Positions 1,097-44,700 of a DNA stretch of 64,000 bases are shown here, in pieces (position 1 is the first letter of the stretch; every line of letters begins with the position of its first letter). This stretch comes from an uncultured Gammaproteobacteria bacterium. Lineage in GTDB: Bacteria; Patescibacteriota; Microgenomatia; UBA10105; UBA927. Location of the stretch: the NCBI GenBank assembly GCA_964629685.1, contig CAZVTT010000003.1, positions 86,038 through 150,037 of the forward strand, written 5' to 3'. A program made the position numbers and the translations under genes. The notes beneath the pieces are model-generated. The model saw only the letters and a program-made list of their open reading frames with translations, had not been told where the DNA came from and searched no databases.

Positions 1097-1172
1097 TTTT
1101 CCTGACTTTCCCCGTACATATACCCTGTTTTTCGTTTTCCTTTTATCCGTTTTTTCTTGTACAATTGTTTCC

Positions 1173-20700: not shown

Positions 20701-23700
20701 CGCAACACGGGTGTTCGGTCTTCTCTGCCTGCCCCACAATTCCCTGGTAGTTGAAAACAGTTGTACGATTGTTTGTTGTGCTCCCTCAAGAATAGAGGGC
20801 TCCTCTAGTACTGATTGCTCCGGAGAAAACACTGGTACTAATTGGTCTGCCCGCGGCGACGGTAATGGCGTTTGCGCTTGATCCTCACGTACTGACGTAT
20901 CCTCTGCTTCGCCTTCTTCCTGAAGTAATTCACTATCCGTTTCTGCAGCTTCAGTTTCGGGAGGAACACCCGGATTTTGTTGACGTACCGGAGTAACGGA
21001 TTCGATCAATTGCGTTACTCTGTTTACGAGTGAAGGAATGAATCCCACGTTTGGCTGTTCCGGTAAGGCTATTGCCCCGGTATACCCGTTGGCTCTGGCG
21101 TACGCTTCAAGGGCAATTATTTGATACGCGAATGCTTCCTGCAGATATTGAAGTTGATCCGTTTCTCCCGGTTTTAACTCACCTTTTAGCGCTTCAAATA
21201 TCACGTTCAGCGCTAACGTATTTGCGGCGACAGCTGTGTCTACCTGTTCCGCAGTGAGTGGCCGGTGGTGTGCCGCTGCCACTTCCGCCATGGTGTTTAC
21301 CGCCTGCAGAATCACCTGATTCCCGGGTATGCCGCTTTCGGTATGTCTGCTCAAATGTTCCTGGGCCAACCTGAGCAAATCACGCATATGCTGTTCTTTG
21401 GCCGGCCCGGTAGCATCATGAATTTTCTTCAAAAGTTGATTTGCCTGACCACGGAATACCGAACATTCTTCACAACCGTTGGGGTCACCCACATCGTTTG
21501 CCTTATCTAACGCATCTTGGGCATATTGTTCTGCCTGAGTCAGACGGGCTTCAGGGTTCACCACCTCGCGTATCGCTTCCAGTATCGTTTTTAACGGAAC
21601 CTGCTCTTCGTTCGTCAATCGGCGGATGTCAGTATTCACCCGGTTTAAATCTCCTACCAATTCATCAAACTGTGCCGTATTTAACGTCAGATCATATATC
21701 TGTGCGTCGGCGTCTATGGTCGTCACCGCCGTAGTCCGTACCGGTTGAATCCGTTCTCCGGCCAACAACGTATTTAATCTGGCGAGCAATCCCAACACAT
21801 AAATCCGCTGTGGTATTTCGTGATGCAGATGCGATACCCATTGTGCCTGTGTTTTTATGTCTCCGGCTGCTTCCGATTTTGCCCAGGCATCAAACGAGCC
21901 TTCCCGTTTTCCCTGCCAGGCTTCCAGAAGCCGTAAAAATACAGCCAGTGTATCTGCCCGGAAGAACGGTATGTTACGGGTTTTTATGGCTGTATATACT
22001 GCCCGGGAATATCTGTTCGCTTCCACAAACCGTAATTCCATGTATGCTCCGTCCTGTCCGGGTATACCAAATGATTTCACCGACTGTTGCGCTTCGGTAA
22101 TCTGCAGCCTTCCACCGGCTTCGCGTGAGAATCGCTGTAGGGTGCGGGTACCCTGACCGGTACCGCCGTCTTTCGTCGTCTTCCCGACATTAAAGTCACC
22201 GTTGGTAAAGTTTGCCGGTTTAAATCCTGATCCACTATCCTGAATTCCTATTACAACTTCTCCTGTATTTGGATCAATTCCGAATCGGACCGTAATTTCC
22301 ACGTCCGAACCGTTTATTTCATATGCATTCTGAATAATATTCTGGAACATAATCTGAAGCGCACTGGGTCGGAACCGAAGTTGCAACGGACGCGCAGGAG
22401 GAACTACGGTAAGTTTTATACCTTTTATCTCAGCTAGCGGCGCTACCATTTCATTTAGGAACGGTTCCAGTTCTACTTCCGCAATATCGTCTCCATTTAT
22501 ATACCTGCTCCACATATCCACCACCCTGGCAGCGGATCGGAGATTACGGTTGGCGCTTTCATACCATTTGCCATACAACTGTTCCGACATGGCATCAGGT
22601 AACGCACCCATACCGGAAAATTGTAGATACATGGACGCATATCCTTTCATACCGGCAAGCTGGTTACCCAAATCGTGACGTAATATTCCCCATGAATCGC
22701 CACCGTCTTCATCCCGCAACTGTTTTAATATTTCGAGCAATTCATCTGCCAAACGCACCACTTCGGGTCCAATCCGTGTTACCGCTTCGGTTCTTGCTGC
22801 TGTATTTGCCGGATTCTCAGGTAATTCGTCGATGAGTCCCCGCAGGTTTGTAAGATACGTATCTATCTGTTCAAACGTGGCATAAATTTTATCGACATTT
22901 CGGACTTCCGGTTCCGGCTCCGGTTCTACTAATGATTCAGTATTTGATACTTCTGTCGCGTAGCCCCACACATACACTTGCTGACCATCTACTTCTATTG
23001 GCCAGCGTACCAGACCGACAAATGCATGCGTTCCCCGCTCTATACTTTCTATTTGGGCGAGTTGGACGATTTCGTCCACCTGTCGGTTAATACTGGTAAC
23101 CCGTTGCCCCGAAACCGGATCGGTCGTTTGTCCCCACCGTCTGGCAGATGGCCGTAAATCCGTGACAGTGGCAGGGTTAACGACGACTTCACCTGCATTA
23201 ACCGTAACGCCGCCGCGTAACATGGCATACCGCGATCTGCCGTCTTCGTACAGGTCTCCCGGAAATTCAACCTGAAGTACATGAATATCTACCGGAGTAC
23301 GCTCGGCGGTCTCATCATTGGCGTTGGCATCCATAAAGGCGGTAAACCCGGTAGCTGTAGGTAGTCCGTCCGTAAACTGACTGGCCTGCGGATTTTGTAC
23401 CCACTCCACATCACCATCTGCTATGTTTCCGATATCACCCAAATGTAAAATCGTACGCGTTTGTCCGCCATTTTTCGGCTGATATTCCCAACGGATTACG
23501 TCATTGTATCCGGGAACGGCGCGGATACCTTCCGGTTCAGATTGTTGGGTAAGCGCACGGGATGTTAACGCTCTGGCGGAAAATTGTTGGGTTCCACTGG
23601 TGGTTGGCTTTGTAGTGGTTTCCGTTGTGAATGGATTTTGTTTCAAATCGGCTATGAAAGTATCCGCTTCCGAAATACGGAAATGACGCTGTGCCCGTGC

Positions 23701-26700
23701 ACGATATGCATACCCCTGTAACATAGTCCTGACCGATTCCATCATGCCGTCTCGGGTTATAAATTCTGCCAATTCCGCATTAGACGTAACACCATACGTA
23801 TGCAAAGTACGATAGATCACATAGTTAAGGTGCTCACAACCCGTTGAAGCACAAACGCGTAATAATTCTTCGTCGGAAAGATAATTGGTAATTTCCAGCA
23901 TCTGCGGTACTATATCTCCGCCTTTTTGCGCTTCCTGACCAAGCGTATCTATTACCTCTTGCAGTTCATTTGCCGTTAATTGTTCTGTACGACCTGCCCG
24001 TTGCTCCAGTTTAGTTTTCAGCTCAGATACACTCGCGGCAGGATGCAATTGTACGTCGGGATCCATGGGTAACAGTGCTAAGGTGTCATACGCGCGTGAT
24101 TGTGGATTAAAAGGTTCATCTTTAGCTGATTTAACGAAGTTATTGGCAAAGAATGTATATATTTCTTGCTCAATTACCGCTCTATTTGCCTGCTGCATGG
24201 TTTGCGCGTAGCCTTTAGTAAGTTGATCCACTGCAGCATCATATGAAGTCTGATTTATTCCCGCAGTATTCCGGTAAAATGCCAGTACGGAACCTGCCCG
24301 ATTCGCTGCTGTTTCAGACTCTGGGAACAACTGACCGAATACACTATCACGAAGCGCTGTATAGTAATCCCAATATTCCTGAGAAACGATTGTACTTACA
24401 ATATTCTCGGCTTCATCCCAGGAAACATTCCCCTGTTGTACTTCCAGGGCTACCATTAATAGCGTCGCCATTCCTTCGTTTCCTAAATCCCTAAGGTATG
24501 GACCATAAGCCCGTAACAAATCGTGAGAGGCTTCATGTGCCAGTATCCGGCGTAATAGCCTGGAGCGTTCCTCAGCAGTAAGTTCCGCATCAGCCCCGAA
24601 TATACTGGCGCGAACAACATAAACACCGGTGGCTTCATCATAGAATGCTGGGACTGCCTGACCCGGAAACTTTGTATCTATATACTGGTCATCAGCGACG
24701 ATTATCGGATAATGGGTGGGATTTATTTCTGACTGGGGTAAACGGATTTGTGCAATTGCGAGGGTATCCACTAAATTCTTCATCGAACCGACCAGCTCGC
24801 CCCGTTTGTGCAGCACTTGTAATGCGAACCATTTGTTTATGGCTTCCTGACTGGCATTGGTGAGTACACCGTTTTCGAGTGTGAGCGGATATTGTGTCGG
24901 ATTATCAAGATGCATGAGGTAATACCCTTTTACTAATCCGTAATTCTGATAGAACGGATCGGAATGGAACTGTTGCAGTACTTCTTCCCTGCCACTCTCA
25001 CCAGTTATTCTGGCTGTTTCCTGTAACTGATCAACCACAGCAGGTGCCCATTCCGGTACCACATGCGCCACGGCATCCATAGCGGTATCGGCAAATACGA
25101 CCACCGGTGCCCGCTGCACCGTATTACTAATCTGCTCACGTAAACTCAACGGACGGGATGAGCCGGGAGGATTGTTATCCGTTTGAGAATCTTCCTCACT
25201 TGGTGGTCGAACCGGATTACTCCTATTTCTTCTCCGCTCTTCTATAACTTGGGCACGTTGAATTTGTTTCGCTAATATCGCTTTTAAGCGTTCACTGAAT
25301 TCAAGTAATTCATCTTTACCGGTAAACGGAACCCGGAAACTGCGAGAACCACCCTCAACACTCGTAGTAACTTCTACACCTGCATCACGGAGTAAATTAA
25401 CCAAGAACGTTGTATCTGTTGATCCGCCGACGGATTGCGGCAACGGTCCTGTTGTAATCCATGTCATTACTTCATCCACATCCGAAAGCATCCCTTTTAA
25501 CGCGAGGATGACATTGCCAATATCAGCTTTTTCATCAGTAATACCATACACATTATTAAATCCGAAATGTAACTGGATTACTGAACCGTTTGGCGTAACA
25601 GCTCTAATGGCTGTAACCCCATTCTGAGCCACAAATCGTGATTCTGTATTCGTAGGCCTTTGCTGCCGTAATTGAAGCATAAAATCCTGACTCTCTTTGC
25701 TCACTTCTTCAACAGCCGCTGCTACTTCATACCAGACCCCACTAATCCGTGACCTGATTTCACCTACGGCAGCAGTAAGCTCATATTGCAGTTGTTCCCG
25801 TTGTATTTGAACTATATCAAACGGTGTTTCATCACCAACCGGAAGTTTTTCTACCAACTGTTGCATGAAGTACAGAGCTTCAACAAGTTGCTGCACTTCC
25901 GTTTCACTTACTTCTGCAGGAAGTGGAAATTCATCAAAATTATTCGCTACTTCAATTGCGGTTTGAATTGATCCAAGTGCTGATTCAATAAACGATGGTT
26001 TCGGTTCAATAATGGCCCTTGCTGTATTTACCTGAGCTATTAATGCTTTTTGAATCCGTTGGTTTGGCATCTGATGCTGATAGGCAACAGCGGCGGCTTT
26101 GGCTATCGCTTTTTTCGCTGATGCTAAATCTGGAGCACTTAACGCTTCATCTATAGCCGCGTTCACCTCTTTCACCGCTTTGCCACAGTCTGTGCAGGTT
26201 TGCCCGGCACTCGCTACCGTTATCGTACCAACTTGTGTAACATCCAATACATCCGTAACCACCGTGTCAGTTTTCTCTACGGATAATGCAGGAGATTGGA
26301 GTAATTGTCGTAAGACGGCTATATCAATTTCCCTTGGAGCATCGTCAGAAATGGTTGCTATCAATTGCTCGACTGCAATCTCTGCAACAGTATCTGAAGT
26401 GTCTGTTTGTACCGTAGCGGAAACCGGCTGAGTTTCACCTGTCGGTGTAAGGTATCCGGGATCGTTGGCAGTCGGCTGATGATACGTAATCGATGGACCA
26501 GACAATCTGCGGACTTCAGGGTCATTTCCGAGCAGAATTACATCGCCGTCATGCAATACTGTCGGCACCGTTATCCTGACACCATTTACCCAGGTGCCGA
26601 AACTCGAACCGGCATCCTCAATTGTTACCGTCGCACCGGTTATGGTTACCCGTGCATGTTGGGCACTACTGACCAAACCGGTACCGCTATTTTTACCGAT

Positions 26701-29700
26701 CAGCAGGTCATAATCCGCTTGTGACAGGATATTTTCACCCTCGCGCTGTCGCTGCAGCCGAATTGTCGTTTTTCCGTCCAGGCCCACTGCGTTTTCAGGT
26801 AATTCGACGGCTACCGGTATTGCTGCAGCACTCTCCGGGACCGGTACCGTTGCCGGAAGCAGCGGTAAAGACGGAGCCAGTCGGATACCCAAATTCTCGA
26901 GTACAAAACTCCCGAAGAGTGTCCGTAGACCCAATACGGTGCGGCGCGCTGCGGCAATAAAGTATGCGGTCGGATATGGCCGCGCGGCATCTTCACGGGC
27001 AACTGCTGCGCGGAGTGATTCCATATCAGCAATAAACACCCGGGAATCCGTCGCTTGGGCACCCACCGGTGCCGGCATATCCTGCAGCGCTGTTGCCGTT
27101 TGAATAGCCTTATCAATCGCAGCCAACATGCTGTCTTTATTTAACGTATCTTTGGTAATGGCAAACCGCACAACTTCAATTTGCGCTTGAACCGCCGTCC
27201 GCATCCGCGCATCCGCCCAGGTGTGGGTGGTAAATTGCAGTTCAGCATTCGTGAACGCAGCTACCGCCTCTGTTCTGTTTCCGGCAGCCAACTGATCTAA
27301 CGCCGTATCCAGCTGCCCCATAAGAGAAGGTACTTCCAGTTTACAAACCGAACATCCCGTTTCTCCCGCTAGTCTTCCCGCACGGTATGCCACCCGTTCA
27401 AAAAATGACTGCAGATAACGGATAAAGGAAACGCTACTGTTCCGGATAATCAATTGACGCTGAATTTCAGTTATACCATTTCCGATACTGTTCAACCCAT
27501 ATACGCTTAATCTGGGAAGTACCAAAACGACGTCAAATACATAATCTACCGCTGTCTTCGTTTGTTGATACACACCCTGCGCCATATTATCCGTGGCGAT
27601 TCCGCGGAAGGAATTCCACCGGGATGTAATACCGCCGAATAATCTGCGACTGATACCACCATCCGGAGCCTGAAGTTGTGCAGGGCTGAACACCCCACCC
27701 TGTGCTGCCAATGCCCCTGCCAGTAAACCGGCTTCGTTTACGGATTGTCTGGCGACCAGTTTGGCACCGTCTTCCCCAATAAGCCTGCGGGCTCTATCCG
27801 CAAGGGATTCCCTGCCGGTTATACGCAGCCAGGCACGCTGTACCACGTTCAGGTTGTCGGCATCCGCACCGATGTCCACATTGAAGACAAATTCACCGGT
27901 ATTTTTATCAAATACCACTGCTATTGTTACTTTCCTCGTATTCACCGTGTCAGCATGCGCACCACCAAAAACGACATCGTTTTCCTGAGGCAACAGCGAG
28001 AACATTACATCGGCATTATCTATCATTCTGGATTCGCCAACGTTAAATCCGTTCTTAGCCAGGAAGCGAATGGCCCAGCGCCATCCGCTTTGCGTCATAG
28101 ACTGAATCCGGAAATGGAAGCCTTCACCCTGACGCGCAGCCACCCGTTCACCGAGGGTAAATTGCCAGGCCCGCATAATCTGATCGGTAGACGTATTTCT
28201 TCCCATTAAGCCAAGAGATATTGCTAGATTATCGCCGTCATCGTAAACAGCTTCCAGGAAGTGGTAGAAGTCTACTCCCATAATCCGGGCTATCGCCCGC
28301 ACTATTAGTGTTTCTATCGTCAACCGACTTGCTTCAAATCGTAAATCTGCCAGCACCGCAATTTGTTCGTCACTCAGTTGCCCGATCTTTTCCGCAGACT
28401 CCAGGAATTCTGCTGTTACCGTTCCGCCGAATATGCGTAATAATTCCGGACTCTGATTAATCCGTACTGCCACATATTGCTTCCGCAATGCATCGACACG
28501 CGGTTTGAGTACGCCGTAAATTCCCGTACCGTCCAACGAGTCTACGCCCAACTCATTCACCAGTTGCGCGCGTACGACCGGATTTTGTGCCAGTCGTTCC
28601 AGATTCAGGCTGGTAGTAAAGTTTTTGATTTTTTGCTGCTGTGCTTCTTCCACGGTAACGGGATTATTCCGTTGATTCACGAACGGCGCAGCTTCCGTAT
28701 GAGCACGGATCGCTCCGGTAAGACTTCTGATAAATGGTGTGTATATTTTCGCGAGTGCCTTAGCTCCGTTTATGGTGGCGTGAGACCAGCCGGTAGATAT
28801 TTGTACCCCCAATAGTTGATCCGGAGCGTTCGTGTCAGCTTGAGTTCCGTAGAGTGTTTCGTCTTTCCCAAGTATGAAAGCAGCTTCCACATGATAACGG
28901 GCAATATTACCCCAGGTGGAAAGTCGTGGACCTTTCGCTTCAGAAAGCCTGGTTGTCCGGGTGCTAAATATTCCATCCAATACACTCAGCCGTTCTGTTA
29001 ATACCCGTGTTTGCGCATCTGTCCGTCGCGGATCATTGGCTGCCAAATCCGGATACACATCATCAACAGTTATCGGAGTTCCTACCAGACGACCGGAATT
29101 ACCTAATTGGCTTAATCGCTCAACTGTTGCTACATCGAGTGGAATTCCGTCATTTACCGCTCCCGTATTTGCTATTAACTGGCTGTACGCATATTTGTAT
29201 ATTAACGATTGCAGCCATTGCTCATCTATTGTCCCGTCGGACAGTACTATTGCATCGTTTAAACGGATGGAATACAACCGGGCAGAACCATCAGGATTCA
29301 TTATTACAAAGTCATAAATGTCTTTCTGATTATAGTCTTCCAGTATCATCCGCTTACCTTCCGGGTCTTTAGGATCAACGGTTCTTGCGGCGGTATATGT
29401 CGTAACCAACTGTTTGGTAATTACCTGGGATAATTGCTCCACCATGAATTCCGCTTTTTGGGTTTCCGAGGCACCTGCCGTCCTGCCTATTTCTACTTCC
29501 GTTCCATCCTGTCGTTCCCAACTCCGGAGAATATTCCGGACAGTCGGACTTACACGGGATAATTCCGCCAAAAGCTGGTTAATATTTTCCGGAGAGGTTT
29601 CGGTTACTGCTGCCTGAATCTGTGCAAACGTATTTGCCGCTGTCTGAAATACCGGAAGCAGTTGTGTTCCTTCTCTGGCGGCTACACCCCGTAAATTTTG

Positions 29701-32700
29701 CGGTACGATTGCCTGCAGTTGATTAAATAAATTGCGCAATTCCGGATTACTCTTATGCAGACGCTCCATAACTTCCAAGGCTTTATCGGGGTTTCTGCTT
29801 AAATAATCCAGGAGGAGTGATGTCACCCGTGCGGGATCCTTTTGAATAGTGGTGCGGTAATCATATTTTAACCACGTTATGTTCATATATGTTGCGGCAT
29901 CCGTCTGCAATATACGGTTAAGTACCCGGCCTACATTCTGTTTTATCCGATTAGCCCCGTCTACCAATATCGTTATCGGATTACCGACTTCCCTGGCCCA
30001 GGTTCCGCTTGCTGCTACTTGCCTGTATGACGCGACCCCTGCTTCTGCTCCGGCTTCCCGGGTAAGTCCGGCAGCTGACTGTGCCAGGAATATAGGCGTC
30101 AACGTCCCGTTGGAAATCCAGGACATAAGATTACGGATTGTTGAAGACGGCATCAGACTGCGGGCTTCATTGGTACGGGCGATGGTCTGATCAAGCTGTA
30201 ACAATACGCCGGTATTATGATCAATCAGTAATACTTTTTGCACCAAATTGAGCGGCACCCGGACAGGCGAAGTCAGCAATGATACGACAGTGGAAACTGC
30301 CTGGAACCATGCTCTCGGGGTGTATACTTTCGCCTGATCTTTGTCCGCAACCTTCCAATTTAGGCGGCCGTTTTCCATATACACCTTAATTCTGGTCGTA
30401 CCGATAGTAACCGTTGCCGGTCTGTTTACCACCACGAATTCCTGCGGCAGAACCGTTTCCGTTACGGTATTGGCGTCTATAGTATCGGCATCCACGTACG
30501 TCAGGGTAATTACGTTCGGACTGGTCGCACGGTTCGCGTCAGCCGGAACATTCCTGCCCGCAGGTGCCACATTAGAAAGTACGAAACTGGAATTGTCCAC
30601 CCGGGTTATCAGTGCATGGGAATCAGCCACACCTTCACCGGCCCGCACCCGTATACCGGCACTCCCGTTCGTACCGATTAACGTACCGGTATCGCGGGTT
30701 AAAGCACTCCGGATTGCGGCAAATACCCGCCCTACTCTCCCGCGTTCTGCCGTGATTTCTGCCGTGTCGGCAATAGGACTACTTACCCCATCCGTAGCCG
30801 GAGTAATACTACCGGGTCGTCGTAACAACGTCGGACGATCATCTTCATTATTCTGCAGGGCAATCCGGCGTGACAGTACTTGGCTCAGTATTTCATCATG
30901 CTTACCCGGTATAGTTAATATCGTTTGTAATGCAGTCTGATATATATCTGCTGCTTCATCCTTATGTGCAGGATCAATCCGCAGCAACAAAACTGCCTGC
31001 AGTTTACGATTCATGGCATCCGTTTCCCCTTCGCGAACGAGAGTTATGACTTCGTTCATCCGGGTCTGTAACTCTCCGGGAAGTACCGTCCGCGCCTGTA
31101 CCCGTTCCTTCTGTTGCCGGAAAGCCGTTTGCAGTCGGGTTACCAAACGCACCTGTAGTGTGGTGGCGACGCCCTTTTGCGCAGCTAACTGCTCAAGCAA
31201 CCTGTCTATTTCCCGCAACACGACATCGTATTGCTCCAATACCGTATCTATCTGGTCAGGTCGATCGTATGTAATCGTGACTTTATCCAAATCCCGAATC
31301 GTGTTTTCAAAATACCCATCAAAATCATAGAAGGTATACGTCTGATTTAATCGACCCTGCAATGTCCGCAGTAACGTAAGATATTGATCGGCAGTTACTT
31401 TCGCCTGCTGTGTGGGTAAAATATCGGAAGCCCGTTCTTCTTCCGATTTAGCTTCATATCGCGCGTCATCTATATCCTGTCGTAACGCTATGAGCACTAA
31501 TTCATAATTGGCTATTCCGTACTCCGTGCGGAGGGTATCCAGCAGTCTGGCCACCGCACCTGTCGGTCGGTTTAACGCGTCAGAGCTCGCTGCCGCAGTA
31601 ACCGGAGTTATCTTCAGTTCATTTGAGAGTTGGTTGTATAACCGTAATACCCCACGCTGATCGGCCGCGTTTGTTAACAAATCCGTAGCTGACTGAATAA
31701 TAAACGACCCGCTGCGCTGATCAATAAACCGGCTAAATACTCTTCCGAGTACTTCTCTGCGGAAATCAAACCAGGTATTTCTGGCCACTACCGCCAAACG
31801 CTGCTGTGTTGTAGCGGGTGTAACCAGCGTCGAATTATTCAGAATTGACTGCAATTCCTGCAGTTGCTGCGAAAGACGGATACGCTCACCTTCCAGCCGT
31901 TGCCGTTCTGCTTCCTGCGCCCGTTCGTCACCTTCCAGTACGCCAAGGATCGCGGAATCCAATAACTTTAACGCCGACTGATGTTTGGCAATAGCATCAG
32001 ATACATCCGCAGTATTTGGCGTTACCCGTGCCTGCTCTCCCTGGACTCTCGCCAATAAATCCATCTGAAACCATGCCTGTCGACTGCTGAATGCATGACC
32101 GTTTAACAATCGGCGCATTTGGGTAACCCACCGCTGCACGAATGGAGCTTGCGCCTGTGAATACAGTCCTTGCGCCCCCCGAATTTTGGTGAAGGCTTCT
32201 ATGGCATCGGTAATCCGGCGGTTCAATACGGAACATCGGGAACATTCCGTATCGTTTATTTGTGCCTGCGGTTGTCCGGCTCTACCGTTAACCGGTTGCA
32301 CCACAGCTTCCGCTTGTCCTTCTCCGATAAACATCACGGTAAAACTTATGTCATCACGGAATCTGCTGTTTGCCGGCAATTCCCCGCGTTTAATCTGATC
32401 CTGGTGGCGTGCACGTACTGCTGCGATAAGTTGGGCTTCCGCAATCTGAGGTGTCCGGGCGTTCGTCAAAATTCTGGCCAGAATCCGTTGTCCCAGCGCG
32501 GGATCCTGGCGGAAGTATTTCAAAAATCCATCCGATGTCAAGAGTACTCTGTCTCCCGATTTGGCTTTGTATGCCGATACTTTCCCGCCATAAAAACTAC
32601 TGCTGCCCAGATAATTCGGGTTTACCGGTGAAGCTGCCTGGTATTGCGGATCACGGGCATAAAACGCCAGCGGATTAAGTACGACGGGATCTATTTCTTT

Positions 32701-35700
32701 AAATGGTGTAGTTCCGCGCAGACGTTGGATCAGCCTACTAACTACGTTTGAGGCAGGCTGGACTGCGTACATTTCGGGATCACCGACCCGCGCTACCAGC
32801 AGACTTCCATCCGGCATTACGGTGGTACCGATTATGGTCGTAAACACCTGTTTATCCGGATCACTCCTTCTTCTTTCCGCTACAAACTGTACCATGGCAG
32901 CCTGCAGACGCACATCTATGGCGTTCTGCAAATAGGCTTGAGCTTCCTGTACGGTTGCCATGTTTCTGGCAAATTCCAGCTCGCGCAGTAAAAATTCTGC
33001 CGCAAATTGCGCACCGTCACGCAGACCGTTTTCGTTCGAACCGGACACGCCGTCTGCAACCACCATACTTTGTCCCTGCGTCAGCGCCACATCCTGTCCG
33101 AGCGGGGAGAATTTTGTATGCCCCGCTATAATCTGACCGTTTCCGACATTTCCACGGATAACCTTTTCTGTTTGCACCGGAGTTTCCGTCTGCGATACCC
33201 TGCTTATGGGAAGTATTCCCGTGTATTCTTTCGTATCCGCGGCGGAAATTTTCCCGTTGGCTATCGCATACAACGGTTTTCTGGTTCCCCGCTCCAATAA
33301 CCAGGCATTTCCACTCGTGGTACTTCCGGCGGTAAATACGTAATACGCATCACCTATTTGTATAGCATCACCATCCTGAAGATATGTCCGACCTCTGCCC
33401 TTTATATTTACGTCATTTACGAGTGTTCCGTTTGTCGAATTTGTATCTTCCAGATAGTATCCTTCACTATCAAAACCCAGCCTGGCGTGATCGCGGGATA
33501 CATTGGTATTGTTTATAACAATCCGCTCTCCGGTTCCGGCATTCCTGCCAAACGTAATGGCCCATGATCGATCAGCTGGTTGTTGCGGAACCACCCGGGC
33601 AACAGCTCCCTGAGCAGATATGCTATATTCCTGACTCCCGTTGGATTGTGTCAGTAGTACCTGTCCGTCTTCGTCATGGGAGAAAATAAGTATCGCGTCA
33701 TCACCAAACGAAATACTGTCACCGTCATGCAATACCCGTAACTGTCCGACTGCTAACGGATATCCGTTCACTGTAGTACGATTTGTCGCTCCGTCATCAA
33801 TAATACCGACACTGCCGTCAGCAGACTGAATTAACCGGGCATGAAGTCGTGATACGGTTGCACCCGGAACGGCAATATCCACCGTATTCCCGTCCTGCAA
33901 TCTCCCGATAGTACGTTCCCAGGTGGGACCTGCTTGTACCGGTGCCGCAATTTCTCCCAAGCTCAGTCCGGTAATAACTCTGCCGTTTACATCAAAAAGC
34001 TGCTGGATTCCTTCAGTATCCCGGCCGACAACCAATGTCACTTCACCCAACTGTACCTGATCACCTTCAGTAAGATTTTGCTGTGTTACTTTTGTACCGT
34101 TGATCAGCACGCCATTTAATGCACCGGAATCGCGTATGGCAATAACGTTTCCGGATGCATCACGGGAAATGTACGCATGTAATCGGGATACGGAGGCTCC
34201 GGCAATATTACCGTTCTGTTCACCCCGTCCGATTCCTTCCGTGGTCAATTCCTGTCCGAGAGCCACACGTGTACCGCTAAACACCGGTGCAGTCACCGGA
34301 ACCGGTGCACGGGATTGTGCTGTGCGTAGATCGAATATGGTCGTTGCATCATCAGCGATACTGCGCGAACGGGATACCACCGGTTGTTCCGTCCGTTGAT
34401 CCGCCGGCAATTCCGCCAGTGTATCTACCGCAATATCCGTTCTGGCTGTGCCGTACACTAATCCGATACTGGTAGTGGTGGCAATCACCCGGTAGCCGAC
34501 CGTTCCGACCATCAATTCATCACCAACCTGCAGCTCAACCGGAGTATTCCGTGGCGTGCGGTACGGCGTTCCGTTCCTGATAATGACACTACTTACGGGA
34601 TGACTGTCAGTAATAACTAAGCGATCATCATTACGTGACAATACCGTCTGCTCCTTTTCATTCGGACTGGCCTGCAGAACCAGAATTTCATTTTCACTCA
34701 ACGTGATTACGGATCTGTCTATTGTCGTCCGTTGAGCTAAAAAGCCGTTAAATGTATCTGGCGCGTCGTACACGTTCTGATCCAGACGGTTGTAAACCAA
34801 CCGTTGCTGTGAACTATCCAACTGATCAAACGGTATAAAATCTGCATCAACGGTATCAAACCCTTCATACAGCAATGCGGATGTCCGGTTGTTTCCGTCT
34901 ATGACCACAAATCTGCCGCTGTCGCGTTCATACGTTATCGTCACCGGTACGTCGGTTCTATAGGTATCATCACCATAAATTCCTGCCCGCGCCCGGAAGA
35001 ATGCATCTGCCCGCACGCCATCTTCGAGTGGGGTTAATTCCGAAATCGTGAAGCGATACCGTCCGGCAGTAAGAGTCTGAGCATTTGCACTGGTAACGGA
35101 ATTTACCTGCCGCGTCTGCGTTGAATTTACGGGTGATACCGCCGGATTACCCATTACAATTTGCAGCAATCCGTTTACATCGGTGGTCACATATACCACC
35201 GTTTGGTCAGATAATGCGTTTACTTCTCCGGCAATTGTGCCGAAGAATACCTGATCTCCTGATTGCAACGCGACAGGTGAACCATTGGTTACGGCAAGAA
35301 TTGTTCCGTCTGCCCGCCGGATAGATGTGCCGTACGAAGAACCTTTCCCGGAATTGCCCAGGTCGCGGACAAATATGGTATTACCCTCTCTGGTAAATGC
35401 TGCATGACGGCTGGATACCTTTGATCCGTAGACCGGTATATCGCCGCGTATTGCCGTCCGGTGATCCACCCGTCCTGCCACTACTTCTCCGCCGAGCCTA
35501 CCCTGACTCCCTGAAGGAATATAGATTCCGCGGGCCTGCTGACCGTTCTGTGTTTGTACCGGAATAAATGCGCCGGGAGTAGTATCTGCAATATAGCCCA
35601 CGACTCCTTCCTGGGTGTCGGCTGTCACATCTGTCGGCGCCAATAATTCGGTTGGTGCAGCGGCTATAACAGGTAATGGACTTGTCGGGCCATCCGCTTC

Positions 35701-38700
35701 CCTACGCATCTGATACACAATTTCATATGCTCTGCGCCGCAGTGCTTCGTTCACCGTAGCTCTGTTCCAGTTTGAAACGGACGGATATTGTGCAGTGTAC
35801 TGCCTGCGCAAATCCTCATATACCCGATCATATATCCGTTGTATGCGGGTAATAGCGCTGCCGCGGAATATTCGGCTTAACTGCGCGGAAGTAGGAATAT
35901 TTCCTTTTTCTGCGGCTACCACATCCGGGGATGAAAGTGCAGCCACATTCTTTTGTATTTCCGCCCGTTGAGCCGCAATCTGTACTCTGAAATATTCCTG
36001 CCGGATTAACGCGAATGCAATATCAAACCGTTGCGCGAGCGGAATTCTCTGAATAGTACTATTTGTTCTGTTATACCACTTGGTTCCGCTTGTGTAGACC
36101 AGGTAAGACGGAATACTGGACCAGTTCCCTTCAAATCCCTGCGGATTCGGATTTCGGTATACGAGGTAGTCCAGGCTGTAATCGTCTTTCACATACACTT
36201 TAACCGTTCCGGATTCCGGAGGTGTTCCCTGAGCAAGTCCTATCCGTTCTGCTAAGTACGCGGCTTTAGCCGTAACAAATGCATCCAGATCGGCAGTATC
36301 CAGCAGATTACCGATTAATGGCGTATACAACCTGCGCATTATTCCGGCGATAGCATCCTGTGTTACTGCCTGAGCCAGGGAAACTTGTTCGAGTACCGCT
36401 TCGTCATCCACTTTGGAATTTATTTCTATTAAACGAGTCACAAATTCGTTGGCTGCCATTCGGGAAACAATTTCCCTGACGCCGTTTGTCCTGTCTGCAT
36501 CCGACCAGATAGATGTGGCAAGTAACTCTTCTTCGACCTGACGTATCAGTTCGTTTGTATCCAGCACTGTTCCGTTAACCGCACCACGGATTACGGCATC
36601 TCCCACCCTACCGAACGCGGCCGACTGGACTTGTGTCGCCAATGCTGCCCGTTGTGTTCTGACTCTGGAATACATCTCCAACGCAACGGGAATTAATGCC
36701 TGGCGGGTTTCGGAAGCCAATGCCAGCCGTTCATCACGCGTCAGCAGTACTCCGCCGAGTCGGAACGCTCCGGATCGTACCCGCAGACTCCCCATCCAAT
36801 CTGTAACGGCAGATGCCACTGCGGCAGTATCGGTTGGACTTATATTCCGCGCAATCAGATACGCCATCAGGTTCCGTTGCATTTCCGGTGTTGTAACAGC
36901 AGCCGATATTGCCGCATCCCATTCGCGCCGTTGCGCTTCCCGCAGTGCATCGCGATGGAGCTCGCGGGCACGTGCGTTTACCGCTTTTCTCACTGCCGGT
37001 CTTCTTCTCAATGCAGGGTTCACCGTTCCCAGTAAATACTGTTCCGTCTCTTCCAGTTCAGAATATGAATCCAGTCGCAACTGATTCGTTGTGGCATTTG
37101 CCGGTATCGCCCGCAACGTACTCACCGTATCTTCAAATCTGTCCGCCGGCAACGTTACCGTTTGCAGTCGTGCTTCGGTCTGGCTTACATTCTCACCTGT
37201 TACGATTTCCGGAGCAGTTAATGCCGCAGGCTTTTCTGCCGTCGTCGTCTGATCTTCTCCTGCGGTAGTCGTGGTTACGGTAGTAGCTATCGTGGCAGCC
37301 GGACCTACTCTTCCCGCCCACGATCGTAATGCATCATAGAATAACAAAGTAGCCGTATATGGTATATTCCCACCGGGCACCGGCATTAAGAATGGATAAA
37401 CAAAACGAGTGAGCAGATATTTACCGCGATTTTGGGAGAATGAAACATTGAGTGTACCGCTGAATATACCGCTTTGTTGCGTACTGAATATATTTATCGC
37501 TCCCGCGAGTCGCTGCATCGGAGTAAGCGTCGGATTGGCTTTCAGGAAATCCCTGATTTCTGCAAATACCGGGAGTACGTCAGTACTTCCGCGTACCAGA
37601 ATGTCATAGGCGTCGACGGCAATGGTATAAAGTTTCAGTGGTGCATAAAACGGTGCGATTGGTCCCAGTAACTGACTTCCTGCCGGACCGAACTGTGCCA
37701 TGACCAGTTCCATCTGACCGACAATATCTTTAGGAAGTTGTCTGGTAACAAAGTACAACGGACTATATATATCCGGATTAATAAGTGCAAAAAGTCCGCC
37801 GCGTCGTTGGGTAAATGCCGCCAACGGACGTAAAAATTCCGGAACCCGTGCGAGTCTGGCTTCCGTCGTCAACTTAAGCTGTGCTTTTTCTGCTTCCGCT
37901 TCCTGCTTTTTCTGATTTTGATACAACGCGATTGCCGGATTTTGTACTGTCCGCAATCCCTGCCAGCCACGATTTAATTCGTAGGCGTATTCACCCGGAC
38001 GGGTTACGGCAAATCTGGCAAATCTGATTCCGTCATACACTAAGAAGTACGGATTCAGTATCCGGCTCCCTGCCCAGGTCAGTGTTTGTAGCGCTACGGC
38101 ACCGGTATTCAGTGGCCGCGGATTGCCGACGGCAAGTGGAGTTGCGTTAAAGACATAATTCACCAATCCGAAGAGTCCCCGTCCGCCTCGGGTATCGGTT
38201 CCGGCTCCTAAGCGCTGCAATATCCATCGCTGCAGCGCCGGCATGGCTTCAATTCGTGCTGCGATAGCGGCCTGTCGGGCAATTAACTCATCAACTTCAA
38301 TCTGCGCGGCAGATTTTGGAGCCGGCGGTTTTACCGGTTGATTGTCGGGTACAGGTGCTGCCACCTGATTTGCCTGGGGATCTGTCAGGTTTTCAAACGG
38401 TAAAATCGCCTGCACCTCCGCAGCAACTTCAGGAAGCGGATCGATCAACGGATCACCCGTTTGACTTATTCCTCCCACTGATTCCGGAGGAACTATGACA
38501 TCACTTTCAGCAACATCCGGTTGGGTTTGTGCGTCAGCTATTACCGCCCCCGCTTCTTCTACTGTGGTCTGAACCAATGTCGGTACTGTGGGAAGCTGCA
38601 CACCTCCGATTACTGTCGTAGCGGGTTGTGTACGCCCGGTAACCAGAGACAAAAATTGAAATAGTGCATTTTGTCTGGCCAGACGCTGCGCTGGCGTTAA

Positions 38701-41700
38701 CTGCTGAACCGTAGCTCCTTGTCCACCGACCGATTGATCCGCAGTAATGGGGATTGCTGCCACCGGTGGTACTACAACCACAGGAGCCTGCTGGTTAAAT
38801 TGACTCACAGCGGTTTGTGCTGATTCAAGCGCTAATTCGTTTGCTCTCGTTCTGACCGCCTGCTGAATCTGTTCATAGCCACGATATTGTGGCGTAACAA
38901 GTGTAGTAAGTGCTGTTTCCACGGGAGTTACCAATTGTGTTGGCAGTTGTACTTGATCAATCGGTATACCCTGAGCAAGCTGCGTTAAATAATACGATAC
39001 TATCGTGTCAACTGCAGGGGTATTCAACGCAGTAATCCGACGAACTTCTGCAGAAATTTCCTCCTGTGTCGGACCGGCAGGAAGTTGTGCTACCGGTGCG
39101 CTGTTTACCGGTGTAAATCCGGGAAGTCGAACTTGTGCTATATCACTATACCCATCCGCGGTGAAACCTACAGCAGTCGGATCCGTGATCACTTCTGTTC
39201 TTCCGTCCGCGTACACAACCCGGAACTCCTGCTGTTCAGATTCGTCTCGTTGCAATCGCAGCTGCATAAATCCTGCACGTGGTAACGAGGCAAATATATA
39301 TGTTCTTCCTGCATAGGTAACTCTGTATAATTCCCCTAATTTTTCAGGAGTATTTAAACCTTGGCGAGGATATGTAGTCATCAGTTCAACACGATAATCG
39401 GGAGATAGCAGCTCCGCCTGCATGCCCATAGCTCTCGCAAAGGCTACCGATTGCAAATTATGGGGGATAAATACTCCATCCTGATAAACCCCGCTAATAT
39501 ATGTAGAATATCGATTGCCATTTTCATATTCATCAAAAACTAAAGCACCATTAACGGCCTCATCCCCAATCTGAAGATCGGACAATGCGGACGCTATAAC
39601 TGAAGGAAGCTGTGAAATATTTTCAACATCTGACACCGGTACATCTACATATTTTCCATTTTGAATAGTCCTTAACGTAACGCGCCCTACAATGTGCAGT
39701 TGTGCAACATTTTGTTGTATTTGGGTTAACTCAGGTTCATTTACTCCCAATGAAATTAATATCTCCCTAGCTGCATCACCTTCATTACTAATCTCCTGTA
39801 CTGTAGACAATACCCGAACAATATCAACATATCTCATAGCCAATATTCTGGAATCCCCCCGAGCTATAGCGGCCTCAAACTCTTCAAATGCAGTTAATAA
39901 CTTAGTGCCAGTATTTGATTGCATTACTTTAGGCGTTATCGGATATCTTCTTAATATCGGCAAAAATCTTGAGGTGGGAACACTGTATTGTGTAAGTGCA
40001 CGGGTCACTTGTTCAGCTCGGCTTTTCTTCCCCTGATCAACAAGTGCGTCAACTAACGCTTGAATAAAAGTGTTTTGTACTATTCTGGAAGCGAGTGATG
40101 GTTGGTCATCCGCATTTATTTCCGGCTCTACGGGCGCTTGTGCCTGAACAATTTCTACTGCACCATCAGCATCATTATCAGTAACAACCACTCTTCTATC
40201 TTCTCCAATTTCCACCGTATCGCTTGGGGCAATTACGGCAGTATCCGTAACGGGGCTATCATTCACCATCAGCGGCTCTGCCGCCTGTTCTTCCGGTGGT
40301 CGTTGATCTGCAATCACCGTTTCGCCGGTCTCATTTTGGGTAATCACGATCGCCGGAACGTTTGGAGCATCCGATTCCGTAATCTCCCGCAGTTGAGTTG
40401 TGTTTGAGTCTACAATCACTGCTGTATCCGCATCGTCTACTTCTACGGATACATTGGAAACCGGTACCGGCAAATCTGACTGAGTTTGCGTATTCGTATC
40501 CGATTGATCCGTTGGGGCGGATTCTTCAGATGATTGGGAACCGGTATCCACTATTGCTCCCGGTGACTCCGGTCTGATGATGGTTACCACTGGTGCGGGA
40601 ATTATACGTTGAATAATAGGGGTACTTCCCAAGGTTTGGCGCATATCATTCATTGCCAACTGTACCCGGGCAGACAATGGTGTTTGGGTTGCCAAACCCA
40701 ACTGTCCGTCTGCATTCCGTACTACCGTAACCGGACGCGTTTCAGAAAGAATAATATCCCCTGGCTGTAACGTTACCGACGTTTCCCGGACTTCCAATAT
40801 CTGCCCGTTGCGCAGAATATGTGCCGGTATGGCCTGACCACCGACCCCCACGTTCGCCGTAAATTGCAACCCGTTGGTAATTGTCTGCACCCGTCCTCCG
40901 GTTACCCGGTACGGCTGATTTGCGTCGACGGCGATAAACGGTAATCGCTGTACTGTCGGGGTAGATTCTGCCGGCGCCTGTCGCACAAATATGCCCGCCA
41001 GGAAACCGCCGATACCCGTCGGTGCGGTTTGCTGCGCTCGCAGATCCGTAAGACTTTGGGCTAACGCGATGCGCTGTTGATCTGTTTGTTCCAATCGCTG
41101 TTGAATATCCCGATACATCACCAATGTGGAAAATGCAGCCGGATCGTTTACCCGAATAACCGATTGGGTACCGCGAAGTACCAGTCCGTCACGGGTTATC
41201 CGATTAAATGCCTCAAGCGACAATTGACCTGTAGGCATTTCCATCCCCTCAGGTAATAAATAGGTAGTTCTGCCCGGTACAATCTGACCGCGTACCACGT
41301 CGCGCCCCAAAGCATCAAAACTGATTATCTGTTGAGACGGATCACGGACGAACACCGGTGTCGTATTTATCATGAGCGCGTCACCCCTACGGATACCGCC
41401 GGATAAAGCACCGATAGTTGTCCTGGTAAGCTGTCCCTGACTTTCCAGTACGGTGATCTGGTCCCGCAGCGCCAATTGTTGTGTCTGCAACGGTCCGGGA
41501 ATATTCCGGAGTGTTTCCAACTCATCCTGCAGTATTCTGATGGTCTGCTGCGTATTTCTTGCCTGGAAAATAGTATTTAGAACCGGAACTGTCGAGAATG
41601 CTGGCTGCGGCAGTTGTGCTAACCGGGTTTGAACCGCAAGCGGAAACGCCGTAACATTGGCAAGTCCACTCCTTCTGGTTGCCTGCTCTGCGATCACTTG

Positions 41701-44700
41701 TGATTGTTGAACCTGTTCCTGTGACGCCGTATATGCCCGGGTAATATCCAATACCTGCGTGTTGTTCCCTTGGGGTATACGTAATTCATTCATCACCCGC
41801 GGATCAATGGACGTCTGAATTCTACCCACTAAATCAGTTAATGTTCTGGCGGAATTTAACGGTTGAGCTGCACCTGTCTGCTGGTTCGTCGGAAGAATAT
41901 CGGCAAGTTCGAATCGCTCCCGCGCGACATCAACCCTGTTCGTATATACTTCCCGTGCCGCCGGTGTTAAGCGTTCTATACCGGTTATTCCCCGGAGAAA
42001 TCCCTGTGCCCGATTCACGGAATTCAATACGTCTTGAGCGCCGGTAATTTCCCTAAAGCCGATGGTGGAATCCAAGTCAGTCGTTCGTCGGTATTCTGTC
42101 CGTAAGTTATCAAAATACTCGGTCGTTTGTCGGTTCGGATCTACACCGAGCAATCGTTCCAGCGCTGTCGGTTCTCGACGGGAAGCAAGTTCCATTTCAT
42201 TTATAACGGAAAGCGGCAAATTATCGGCTACCCGTTTGGCAGCTGCGAGTTCATTCCGTTGAGTGAGCAACGCTTCGTTCCGGGCGAAAAAGTCACGTGC
42301 TGTGGCAATATTCGCTAACTCGGCAGCCGGTACGTTCATACCCACCACTTCTAACCGTGAATACTCTCCGCTGCGGCCACGGTCACGACCGACGGCCTGC
42401 AGGAATGTGGTCTGGGTTGTATCCGTTCCCACGACGACGGTAAACCGTTCGGTTGATCGTGTATACAGATCCGTACCGTAATGAGAACCGTATTCGATTA
42501 CTGTCAGCAATGTTCTTTGACTATTACTGCCGTTCCGGTACGTTTCCATCGTGGCATCAACGCTTCGCAAATCATTGAGACGGATTTCTGTACCGTCTGC
42601 CCGGATAAGCCGGTGTTCACCACTGGGACTCACCACCAAAATATCGGCATCAGGTTGGGCACGGGACGCCTGTTCCCGAATCGTCCGCGACGATTGTTCT
42701 CCGGTAGCTATAACAACTATTTCAATATTTCCCCGTCGACCCTGCGTAATGGCAGTTCCGATATTTGCTGCATCTGCCACCCGGAATTCTGCAGGTTTGT
42801 GCGCAGCACCATCACTCAATACATAGTCCACCTGCCCGACAGGACTGGCATTCAGGGAAATACCATGTACTTTTTCAAATTGATTCCGGACATATTCCGG
42901 CGTTCCGGTAAATCCGAATATTTCCGAAAAATTCTGCATGAACAGCGCGTAATTTGTTCCTTTTGCCGTGCTGGTAACACTCACATCACCCAGATTTACC
43001 TCTACACGCCTGCCGATGCCTTCCAGCATCGCACCGCCTACATACTCAAGCGCCAACGCATCAAATGAACGGGATGGTGTCCGTTCTGTCGGGGCTGCTT
43101 CGTCGCGCAATCCGACCCGTTCACGACCTTCGCGGGTAACAACGCCAAAATCCACATCTACCCGTTTTCCGAGCATGTCCACTATACTTCCGGCAGCAGA
43201 ACGGGCTTCCGTAAAGTTCCCACGCAGGGTATTGGCGACTGATTCCCCAAGTCCGAAATTGTCTCCGTTCTGAAATCGTACGAGTGCTTCCTGACGCTGT
43301 GCTTCAGTGCCGGTAAATATTCTGTCACGGGCAGCTTCAGCGGCAGCTCTCTGTGACGGTTCCATTCTGCTTATCGCGACATCAAACATTTCGGTATATA
43401 ACCTATTCTGTGCAGCCTGATCTACAATCACGCCGCGCCCTTCACGGATCTCTATTCCCAGGGAACTTCTGGCACCGACAATATCACCCAATCTGGCCAG
43501 CTCAATAGCGCGTTGCACCGACGTACTGCGCGATATGACGGATTCAAACGTAGTAATAAATGTCCTACCCTGTTCATTCTGAGAAAGCACAATCCGTTCA
43601 CCCTCGCTGATGATGTAATCCACGTCAAGTCGTAAAGAGAGTTGGGCTTCGTCGGCAACCAACACCGCACCTTGTGCCTTTTCCATTACCGCTCTGCCCT
43701 GCTCGCCTTTTATTGATTCGTAGATAACGTCCTTCGTGGTCAGGAAAATTCTCCCTTGACCGACTTCCGCTGCCGTCCGCTGTGCGCCATCCAATAAAAC
43801 GACTCGGTTCCCTAAGGCTTCGGTTAACTGCTGTTCCACACGTACGCGCTGCTCATTGGAAAGTTGCGAGAACGATCGGACACCTTCCGGCATTTCTGCA
43901 AACTGTGTCGCGAAATTAAATAAATCGTTACTGGTGTTAAATAATCCGAATACGTCTTTCCCGGTCATTTCCGCTTTTAACGAAATAATTGCGGGAATAA
44001 TGGTTGATGATTTACCCACACCGGTAATAGCTTCATAGAGCGTTCCGACAGGCCCATCTGTGCGTTGGCCGATATTCAGCATGGCATCGACAATGAGTCG
44101 TTGCTGATTAAACTCCACGGATTCAAAACCACGTACACCCTGCAATTTTCCGCCACTGGTTTCTATCAGTCGCTGTTCTACGATTGCTAATTCACGGTTT
44201 ACTCTGTTTATCTGTGTCTGCACGTCTGCCGTCACTGCCGTGTTTGCCACTACACGGGTAGATGTCACCAACGTATCCCGCGGTAGCGTTCCGGTTATCT
44301 GACTATTCTCCAGTACATATAACGACCGGCCTTCTGCCAGTATCTCCACCCGTTGACCACCACTGAATTCCAGTACCATTCGTCCCTCACGGGTACCGAT
44401 TGCATCACGCAGTTCTGTCGTCGTACGGATTTCCCGGGGTAAATTCAGCCGTTCACCGCCTATTTCTATACCCGTCACCGCTGCACGGGTTCCGTCAAAC
44501 CCACGGATTTCACTGCGTACTTCTACAATCGGTCTTCCCTCGGGAGTGGTTTGCTGGAAACCTTCCTGTACTGCGCGATAGGCATCGACTTGGCTTTGAC
44601 CACGACCAACCAGCCGACCGAGAGCATTCGGACTCTCCGCACTACCAAGTATTCCATCAGCAATTCTTTGCGTTACTGACCGCTGTGTGTTTACCTGGAC

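Follow-up and report, generated by a model that had tools for sequence, protein, structure and literature searches.

A predicted FHA-targeted PP2C phosphatase module within a 17,564-residue protein of a probable Patescibacteria bacterium

Phosphothreonine (pThr) signalling involves readers such as FHA domains, erasers such as PP2C phosphatases and Hanks-type writers, and these three classes occur together in the type VI secretion system (T6SS) set Fha1/PpkA/PppA and in the mycobacterial set PknB/PstP/FhaA/FhaB, in both cases as separate proteins whose genes sit in operons of their own together with those for T6SS or cell division. Plant KAPP is a fusion of FHA and PP2C, and Rad53 and Chk2 are composite proteins of FHA and kinase domains. 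The Deinococcus radiodurans protein DRA0334 is a fusion of KI-FHA and PP2C in which the FHA part gives substrate docking (bioRxiv 10.64898/2026.01.23.701218), and fusions of PP2C with kinase in Pseudomonas and Deinococcus, as well as of FHA with kinase in cyanobacteria, have been reported (PMC1262709). Here we describe a 64,000-nucleotide stretch of contig CAZVTT010000003.1 (assembly GCA_964629685.1, positions 86,038 to 150,037 of the forward strand; referred to as the window), in which nucleotides 32323-35484 encode a predicted pThr reader/eraser module that lies mid-way in a single open reading frame (ORF) of 17,564 aa. An earlier note on this DNA had placed FHA, PP2C and kinase-like domains on one polypeptide, which was borne out with an exact residue mapping, and had stated that reader, eraser and writer are normally separate genes. 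The latter claim was overstated, considering DRA0334, KAPP and the known PP2C-kinase and FHA-kinase fusions. The domain combination is a variant of known fusions, since each of the pairs (FHA with PP2C, PP2C with kinase, FHA with kinase) is already known, and the novelty lies in its context, which is a giant, Cys-partitioned and junction-punctuated multi-enzyme chain in a probable Candidate Phyla Radiation (CPR) bacterium.

As in KAPP and DRA0334, FHA is N-terminal to PP2C on the same chain, an arrangement in which FHA docks on phosphorylated kinases or substrates. Unlike in these two proteins, FHA is present here in 1 + 3 copies, the module occupies aa 7647-8700 within a chain of 17,564, the PP2C domain is far more divergent and there is no cognate kinase gene near the giant gene. 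In the composite kinases the domains are adjacent and the chains are shorter than 1,500 aa, whereas the kinase-like domain of the giant protein is located ~8,400 aa from PP2C. Operons of the T6SS or mycobacterial kind are missing from the window, in which neither T6SS families nor a cell-envelope operon context were found. A T6SS context was rejected because the window contains no separate Fha/kinase/phosphatase set and no T6SS genes.

The giant ORF, at 5728..58422 of the minus strand, specifies 17,564 aa plus a stop; its listed start is a GTG at 58422, with an alternative ATG at aa 44 (MKSSTIH...). All features of the giant protein given below are on this strand, on which nt 32323-35484 correspond to aa 7647-8700 and nt 6523-7254 to aa 17057-17300. 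The frame is uninterrupted over 52,695 bases, and an open frame of 52.7 kb cannot be a product of chance. Composition is even along the ORF, and Ala is the commonest residue of the protein (1,797 of 17,564). For the Pfam scan the protein was tiled in 1,000-aa pieces, after which single segments were rescanned. Most of its length is without detectable relatives, and the modules above a curated threshold are five FHA domains, PP2C, a HATPase_c domain and an AvrB/XopAH-like segment. The reader/eraser module is laid out as one FHA copy (FHA a), a spacer of 320 aa, three FHA copies (FHA b, c and d), a linker of ~80 aa and PP2C.

All five FHA copies exceeded the curated Pfam cutoff of 20.7 bits (FHA, PF00498), and their residues were checked in an alignment with the FHA domains of FhaA (Rv0020c) and Arabidopsis 1UHT. 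FHA a (35218..35484, aa 7647-7735; 33.1 bits, E 8e-8, aa ~7660-7728) keeps GR at 7650-51 and the SxxH motif (S7671...H7674) and has Tyr in place of the conserved Asn, beside a 5-aa insertion. The residues are GR 8065-66, S8079xxH8082 and N8103-G for FHA b (34018..34260, aa 8055-8135; 44.1 bits, aa 8064-8126), and GR 8173-74, S8191xxH8194 and N8214, followed by R and not G, for FHA c (33673..33930, aa 8165-8250; 50.7 bits, aa 8171-8240). The most canonical of the five is FHA d (33328..33570, aa 8285-8365; 62.7 bits, aa 8289-8357), with GR 8292-93, S8309xxH8312 and T-N8331-G. Its best match in the PDB is the Arabidopsis FHA domain 1UHT (E 8e-7), with further matches to FhaA, OdhI, Rv1747 and GarA and a weaker one to Rad53 (E range 8e-7 to 5e-3). 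A fifth FHA domain, which the earlier note had located at aa 10552-10633, was recovered as FHA e (26503..26700, aa ~10575-10640) with a Pfam match at aa 10585-10632 (49.8 bits), though it is degenerate, with GK for GR, SxxH kept and Asn replaced by Phe. The full GR/SxxH/N triad is found in three of the five copies (b, c and d); in these the pThr-binding residues are intact, and pThr binding itself is predicted. A search of the giant protein with a hidden Markov model (HMM) built from the five copies yielded no sixth significant copy, and the FHA copies score lower on the YscD cytoplasmic-domain model Yop-YscD_cpl.

The four copies upstream of PP2C had been described as tandem and as fused directly to the phosphatase. 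Four copies are indeed present above the Pfam cutoff, but the first is set apart from the other three by ~320 aa, and FHA and PP2C share the same chain but are separated by the linker. The spacer that sets FHA a apart from FHA b (34261..35217) contains no recognised Pfam or NCBIfam family. By eye, and without profile support, it includes a ParB-like 'IDGNNR' (34879-34908); a weak half-FHA-like stretch lies at aa 7929-7981.

The PP2C/PPM phosphatase occupies 32323..33135 (aa 8430-8700), where Pfam PP2C_2 (PF13672) matches aa 8448-8665 at profile positions 22-204 of 209, with an E of 1.3e-7 and 31.8 bits, the cutoff being 24, and SpoIIE gives a weaker Pfam match. NCBIfam Stp1_PP2C (Stp1/IreP) matches with an E of 3.4e-7, but its 30 bits are far under the equivalog cutoff of 230, and the segment is therefore no Stp1 orthologue. 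As references we used Mycobacterium tuberculosis PstP (identical to PDB 2CM1/1TXO) and Bacillus subtilis PrpC, the latter as an unverified sequence. All five metal-binding Asp residues are kept compared with PstP: Asp 8444, 8457, 8548, 8631 and 8690 correspond to PstP D25, D38, D118, D191 and D229 (motifs I, II, (V), VIII and XI), of which D8457 (ADGVSG), D8548 (VGDPE), D8631 (TSDG) and D8690 (RDDIS) were placed by MAFFT and hhalign. Because MAFFT misaligned motif I, D8444 (GQD) was assigned by spacing and by the range of the Pfam match; it is located 13 residues ahead of D8457, which is the PstP D25-D38 spacing. With the full set of metal-binding Asp residues the PP2C domain looks intact, and catalysis is predicted. 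PP2C alone had no phmmer match in the PDB and none among 5.8e9 protein clusters in a word-indexed search, and a PP2C gene was present in none of the fetched loci L001-L008. Overall, HMM searches scored the segments as FHA and PP2C above the Pfam thresholds, and in neither family were the key phosphopeptide- or metal-binding residues absent from all copies. We predict with high confidence that they form an FHA-targeted PP2C module.

The third element, the kinase-like domain, is located at 6613..7254 (aa ~17057-17270). It had been called a Ser/Thr-kinase-like domain, which holds in as far as it shows remote homology to three Hanks kinases, but the Pkinase profile was not matched. An exhaustive HMMER search with aa 17021-17330 against 1.84e9 representative proteins resulted in only three matches (E 6.6e-6, 2.9e-4 and 3.5e-4), with no close relative among these proteins. 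All three are true Hanks kinases (Pkinase 129-147 bits) and aligned over their kinase domains, and BLAST and hhalign placed the segment in register with them from the G-loop to the DFG position; the hhalign probability of 97.8% is inflated, since the best matches of the query itself had gone into the profile. PknB aligned in register by BLAST without significance (E 1.1), Pfam and NCBIfam kinase families were absent even at E<=5 and phmmer gave nothing significant in the PDB. The G-loop reads GGSGATVY, VAVK carries K17091 and E17104 occupies the alphaC position; VDDVRDVN stands for HRDxxxxN with D17183 and N17188 kept, and DLN for DFG with D17207 kept, so that the domain is without the His and Arg of HRD and the Phe and Gly of DFG. 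Similarity stops at the DFG position, beyond which C-lobe subdomains VIII-XI (APE, alphaF Asp, subdomain XI Arg) were not recognised in the ~65 poorly aligned residues that follow; these include a Ser as well as a run of TTT and may or may not form an activation loop. AlphaFold2, given the 4-sequence alignment, produced a model too poor to judge the fold (predicted local distance difference test, pLDDT, 42.7), and only the order of its secondary structure elements is kinase-like. The domain is, by sequence comparison, a predicted remote homologue of the kinase catalytic core, below Pfam grade, whose C-lobe is truncated or unrecognisable. The effector proteins NleH, OspG and HopBF1 are minimal kinases, and with ~215 aa, a complete catalytic core and a truncated C-lobe the domain is like them in architecture. 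It belongs to a separate module with its own junction motif.

A Kyte-Doolittle scan of the giant protein revealed a single segment with a hydropathy above 1.6 in 17,564 aa (58174..58263, aa 54-83, ILPLVLLLAFASVTVLLIS), which we read as a predicted signal anchor or signal peptide; no second segment of transmembrane quality was found in this crude scan of the whole protein. The segment is followed by Pro/Thr-rich linkers and small Cys-rich modules (55540..58173, aa 84-961) and then by 18 tandem repeats of ~137 aa each (48100..55539, aa 962-3441). The repeats are 26-75% identical to the reference copy and have eight conserved Cys each, seven of them invariant and one present in at least 90% of the copies, and the repeat region is nearly free of Lys (9 in 2,480 aa). 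When the 18 paralogues served as alignment, AlphaFold2 confidently predicted an all-helical unit (pLDDT 89.4) for which Foldseek found no PDB fold match with E<1; the repeat region would be a helical rod, probably a disulfide-stapled one. ALP_N and CBM_21 in the repeat region were rejected as spurious, as their weak Pfam scores are cumulative over the repeats and no single stretch passes.

The distribution of Cys divides the protein sharply, with 233 (5.5%) in aa 1-4271 (45610-58422) compared with 18 (0.14%) in the 13,293 residues of aa 4272-17564 (5731-45609). Flanking cytoplasmic and membrane proteins have 0.8-1.15% Cys (iPGM 1.15%), and three exported-looking flanking proteins have 0%. All 18 Cys of the C-terminal part occur in nine close pairs, a pattern that none of 200,000 random placements reproduced, and in its Cys usage the enzyme part resembles exported proteins. 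Right at the boundary between the Cys-rich and the Cys-poor part is a Gly-rich amphipathic stretch (45523-46725, aa ~3900-4300) with short hydrophobic segments, acidic flanks and no family match, which could be a membrane-inserting or translocation region.

Cys pairs also mark two types of junction motif. Type A consists of 'G.TC..C' (CxxC) and a subsequent helix and is present in four copies: directly after PP2C (32128..32283, CxxC at aa 8727/8730), at 27241-27390 (aa 10345-10394, Cys at aa 10357), ~100 aa after FHA e (26080-26235, aa 10730-10781, Cys at aa 10743) and ~190 aa after HATPase_c (21367-21510, aa 12305-12352, Cys at aa 12317). Type B comprises ~75 aa with the pattern 'W[LV]..E..C-x19-21-C.LPG' and YAADG, and its three copies are located after the AvrB-like segment (15727-15942, aa 14161-14232), at 13318-13560 (aa 14955-15035) and just upstream of the kinase-like domain (7423..7650, aa 16925-17000, with a Cys-x19-Cys loop). 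These Cys-pair motifs at the borders of enzyme modules may be disulfide loops or processing sites.

Among the other modules of the chain, AvrB and XopAH belong to a family of type III effectors that act in the host. The AvrB/XopAH-like segment (16177..16461, aa ~13988-14082) covers only the C-terminal ~95 residues of this family: AvrB_AvrC has 35 bits in Pfam against a cutoff of 23.2 over profile positions 233-321 of 326, AvrB matches in the PDB with an E of 1e-4, and NCBIfam XopAH matches with an E of 5e-12 and 46 bits against a cutoff of 220. A full-length AvrB/XopAH profile match was obtained from neither Pfam nor NCBIfam. A His-kinase-like core (22078..22683, aa 11914-12115) consists of HATPase_c (aa ~12020-12112), which is above the Pfam threshold with 37 bits and also has a PDB histidine kinase match and an NCBIfam match, and of an H-box-like stretch LRHDLGNQLAGMKGY (aa 11914-11928; LRHDLGNQ) that was recognised by eye only, ~105 aa upstream. 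This core would add a second kind of writer to the same chain. Between 42364 and 44022 (aa 4801-5353) motifs follow each other in the order known from SecA/DEAD ATPases, namely GVGKSS (Walker A), VADEAQ, DVDYIISEGE, GFTGTP and QAVGRDRGRSGE (QxxGRxxR). One BLAST high-scoring segment pair aligns with residues 323-364 of Escherichia coli SecA (pairwise E 0.004), and a Pfam or PDB profile match is absent from this region (aa ~4800-5350). Subthreshold signals were obtained for Methyltransf_25 (E 0.0034) around MEVGVGMG (12343-12678) and for the GNAT family Acetyltransf_1 (20.3 bits, with the cutoff at 20.7; 7903-8145). An HExxH motif (LAHEASHD, 24520-24543) and a nucleotidyltransferase-like 'GS...DADYDF' (17893-17949) were seen by eye, without profile support.

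The flanking iPGM gene points to the source of the DNA. Identical copies occur in three Logan assemblies as well as on an NCBI contig of 155 kb, and its named relatives, at 44-59% identity, are all but one assigned to the 'Patescibacteria group' or to Nomurabacteria. On the basis of this gene, the organism is probably a member of the Patescibacteria (CPR), and it is probably episymbiotic. Two metagenome assemblies of other samples (L009:1-7506 and L010:1-3066, both minus strand) contain truncated orthologues of the N-terminus of the giant gene with synteny kept (M23/LysM, iPGM, CarboxypepD_reg). In L009, iPGM is 77% identical and the giant-gene part of 2,502 aa is 45-56% identical, with the same anchor, Cys-rich architecture and repeats. 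Because of this difference, we consider that the giant gene evolves faster than its iPGM neighbour. In L010, with an iPGM of 58% identity, the giant-gene part of 1,022 aa has the same anchor and Cys-rich modules, and the alignable part is restricted to ~55 residues around the anchor (40% identical). The hydrophobic segment is kept in both orthologues, and a post-anchor motif 'QVQ..DIR.RAA.PYP' is kept in all three proteins. The K/R-rich N-flank of the anchor in the L010 orthologue suggests an N-in orientation. Short-read contigs of the same organism break near the start of the repeats, and orthologue fragments may therefore be missing from the databases.

We tentatively favour, without calling it probable, the reading that the module is a surface-tethered, host-directed, FHA-targeted phosphatase. 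The FHA domains would dock on pThr-bearing proteins and keep PP2C beside them, so that the docked proteins or their partners would be dephosphorylated as in KAPP and DRA0334, and three intact FHA domains in tandem could provide avidity or multi-site recognition. Because there is one membrane segment, a K/R-rich N-flank in the L010 orthologue and an exported-like Cys usage, we infer that the enzyme train would be displayed outside the producer's cytoplasm. Action in another cell is favoured by the single anchor, which is probably N-in, together with the evidently extracytoplasmic, disulfide-rich first 4,200 aa, the exported type of Cys usage, the AvrB/XopAH-like module and the probable episymbiosis. 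The ATP- or Mn-dependent modules would work inside a contacted host cell, where the FHA-PP2C module would bind and erase Ser/Thr-kinase signals of the host. In this view the kinase-like domain stands by itself as a module and is not a dedicated partner of FHA and PP2C. Actinobacterial hosts sense Saccharibacteria epibionts through a pathway of kinase, pThr site and FHA protein (2026 preprint, PMC13622651), which makes a reader/eraser module directed at the host a concrete idea.

Several observations weigh against this reading. FHA, PP2C, ATPase and kinase domains are typically cytoplasmic and cofactor-dependent, which by itself speaks for a place in the cytoplasm of the producer; their need for ATP or Mn fits the host cytoplasm and the producer's own cytoplasm alike; the same paradox of extracellular enzymes was noted for giant proteins of Omnitrophota (bioRxiv 10.1101/2023.11.21.568195). 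Action in the producer would require that the Gly-rich stretch at aa ~3900-4300 spans the membrane in an unconventional manner, by which the last 13,000 aa would be cytoplasmic again, and the possible SecA-like ATPase at aa ~4800-5350 would need cytoplasmic ATP. The hydropathy scan is a crude one, the assignment to Patescibacteria draws on one housekeeping gene, and FHA a and e are without the conserved Asn. Family scans recognised no secretion or delivery machinery in the 64-kb window. Word-indexed protein searches and scans of genomes and metagenomes likewise revealed no homologue of the FHA-PP2C segment: the word-indexed search with aa 7630-8720 returned only two weak FHA matches, and the scans only distant FHA proteins of Armatimonadota, Chloroflexota and similar groups.

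An elaborated form of the host-directed reading, which we regard as quite unlikely in its full extent, has the episymbiont use the anchor and the ~2,500-aa disulfide-stapled rod to present a Cys-free chain of modules to its host, with release at the junctions. Proteolytic nicking and the reducing host cytoplasm would open the disulfide loops of the type A and B junctions and free single modules in the manner of AB toxins. The freed FHA-PP2C module would erase pThr signals of the host, a candidate target being the kinase-pThr-FHA pathway by which Actinobacteria sense Saccharibacteria as a threat (PMC13622651), whereas additional processes of the host would be rewired by the remaining modules, such as the kinase-like and AvrB-like ones.

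The self-contained phospho-switch proposed in the earlier note would instead act in cis: the C-terminal 13,000 aa would be cytoplasmic, the kinase-like or His-kinase domains would phosphorylate sites on the giant protein or on its partners, FHA would read and PP2C would reset them, and together they would control how a membrane-anchored giant machine assembles or works. We regard this account as rather unlikely. All three functions are indeed on one ORF, catalytic residues of PP2C and of the kinase-like domain are kept, and the domain types are normally cytoplasmic and require ATP or Mn. The Gly-rich region at aa ~3900-4300 could cross the membrane, a possible SecA-like ATPase follows it, and giant Omnitrophota proteins have been described as membrane-embedded with SecA-like domains. 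The anatomy of the protein provides no direct support for the switch, however: the kinase-like domain is ~8,400 aa away from PP2C, separately delimited as a module of its own and not of Pfam grade, and no T6SS or envelope operon accompanies the gene. Furthermore, a second hydrophobic segment of transmembrane quality is missing, a depletion of Cys with every remaining Cys paired is atypical for the cytoplasmic proteins of this genome, and the AvrB/XopAH family consists of host-acting effectors. Delivery of the domains as an effector, which had been offered as the alternative, fits more of the anatomy (anchor, Cys usage, AvrB/XopAH-like segment, organism), although neither reading is demonstrated.

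FHA b, c and d have lost none of the motifs that contact pThr, PP2C keeps its five Asp and the kinase-like domain its Lys/Glu/Asp/Asn/Asp, and because exactly these residues survive extreme divergence, they argue for selection on catalysis and ligand binding. It is thereby improbable that the domains are non-catalytic scaffolds, with FHA as phospho-independent assembly modules (as in YscD of the type III secretion system or Esx EccC/EssC) and with PP2C and the kinase-like domain as pseudo-enzymes in a giant fibre, even if such a role would agree with the lower-scoring Yop-YscD_cpl matches, with the loss of Asn from FHA a and e and of Arg from FHA e, with the changes in HRD (His/Arg) and DFG (Phe/Gly) and the unrecognisable C-lobe of the kinase-like domain, and with a PP2C domain too divergent for phmmer matches in the PDB or for matches among the 5.8e9 protein clusters. 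An assembly chimera or a decaying pseudogene, in which the co-occurrence of the domains would not be biological, has to be considered for a sequence of metagenome origin with 18 similar repeats that are hard to assemble and near the start of which short-read contigs break. We judge this highly improbable, as an uninterrupted frame of 52,695 bases is beyond chance or decay, independent assemblies of other samples show the same 5' end, synteny and N-terminal architecture, the flanking iPGM is also present on the 155-kb NCBI contig and the composition is uniform over the ORF.

Trains of unrelated enzyme modules that share one polypeptide with recurring junction or processing elements, and that presumably act in a different cell, are otherwise known from MARTX toxins and reportedly from the polyvalent proteins encoded by phages and by conjugative elements (Iyer et al. 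2017). The giant protein resembles both in this respect but differs in that no RTX repeats, no cysteine protease and no phage or conjugation context were detected. We rejected an identification as a MARTX toxin because RTX repeats and the cysteine protease domain are absent from all 20 Pfam tiles of the protein, and a phage or plasmid origin because no such genes are present in the window. To our knowledge, Cys-pair junctions have not been described for MARTX or polyvalent systems. With the Omnitrophota giants, for which many domains are paradoxically predicted to be extracellular and for which a role in attachment or attack was proposed (West-Roberts et al., bioRxiv 10.1101/2023.11.21.568195), the protein shares an ORF of more than 10,000 aa, a probably ultra-small bacterium as its source and sparse, divergent domains including HATPase_c. 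The Omnitrophota proteins contain numerous transmembrane regions and a Pfam-detectable SecA_DEAD, and FHA is unmentioned for them, whereas here there is one transmembrane segment, the SecA-like motifs were recognised by eye and the phylum is another one.

Genomes of Patescibacteria (CPR) comprise ~1 Mb, so that a gene of 52.7 kb would account for ~5% of what they can encode; this gene is kept in synteny in relatives. The means by which CPR bacteria exploit host cells are largely obscure, and if the modules act on the host, this would be the first candidate case of an episymbiont that directly manipulates the Ser/Thr phospho-signalling of its host. If the module acts in cis, it would be part of an unusually large self-regulating scaffold. 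The protein adds a giant from a second ultra-small lineage beside Omnitrophota, and its sharp boundary between Cys-rich and Cys-free parts and its Cys-pair junctions are concrete handles on how giant chains are exported, cut and used.

The giant gene is flanked by genes for an NPCBM protein, two membrane proteins without a known family, an M23/LysM peptidase, iPGM and a CarboxypepD_reg protein. Three of the neighbouring genes, at 47-5689 on the plus strand, converge on the giant gene. Two of them encode membrane proteins, one of 349 aa and one of 851 aa (the latter without a family match), and the third a protein of 654 aa that ends in a glycan-binding NPCBM/NEW2 domain; their products might modify or handle the giant surface protein. 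Directly upstream of the giant gene, two tRNA-Ala genes (anticodons GGC and CGC; 58902-58977 and 59270-59345, both on the minus strand) are overlapped by spurious ORFs. GC skew of the plus strand is negative in all 2-kb windows (-0.03 to -0.20) regardless of gene orientation, which suggests a strong replication-strand compositional bias.

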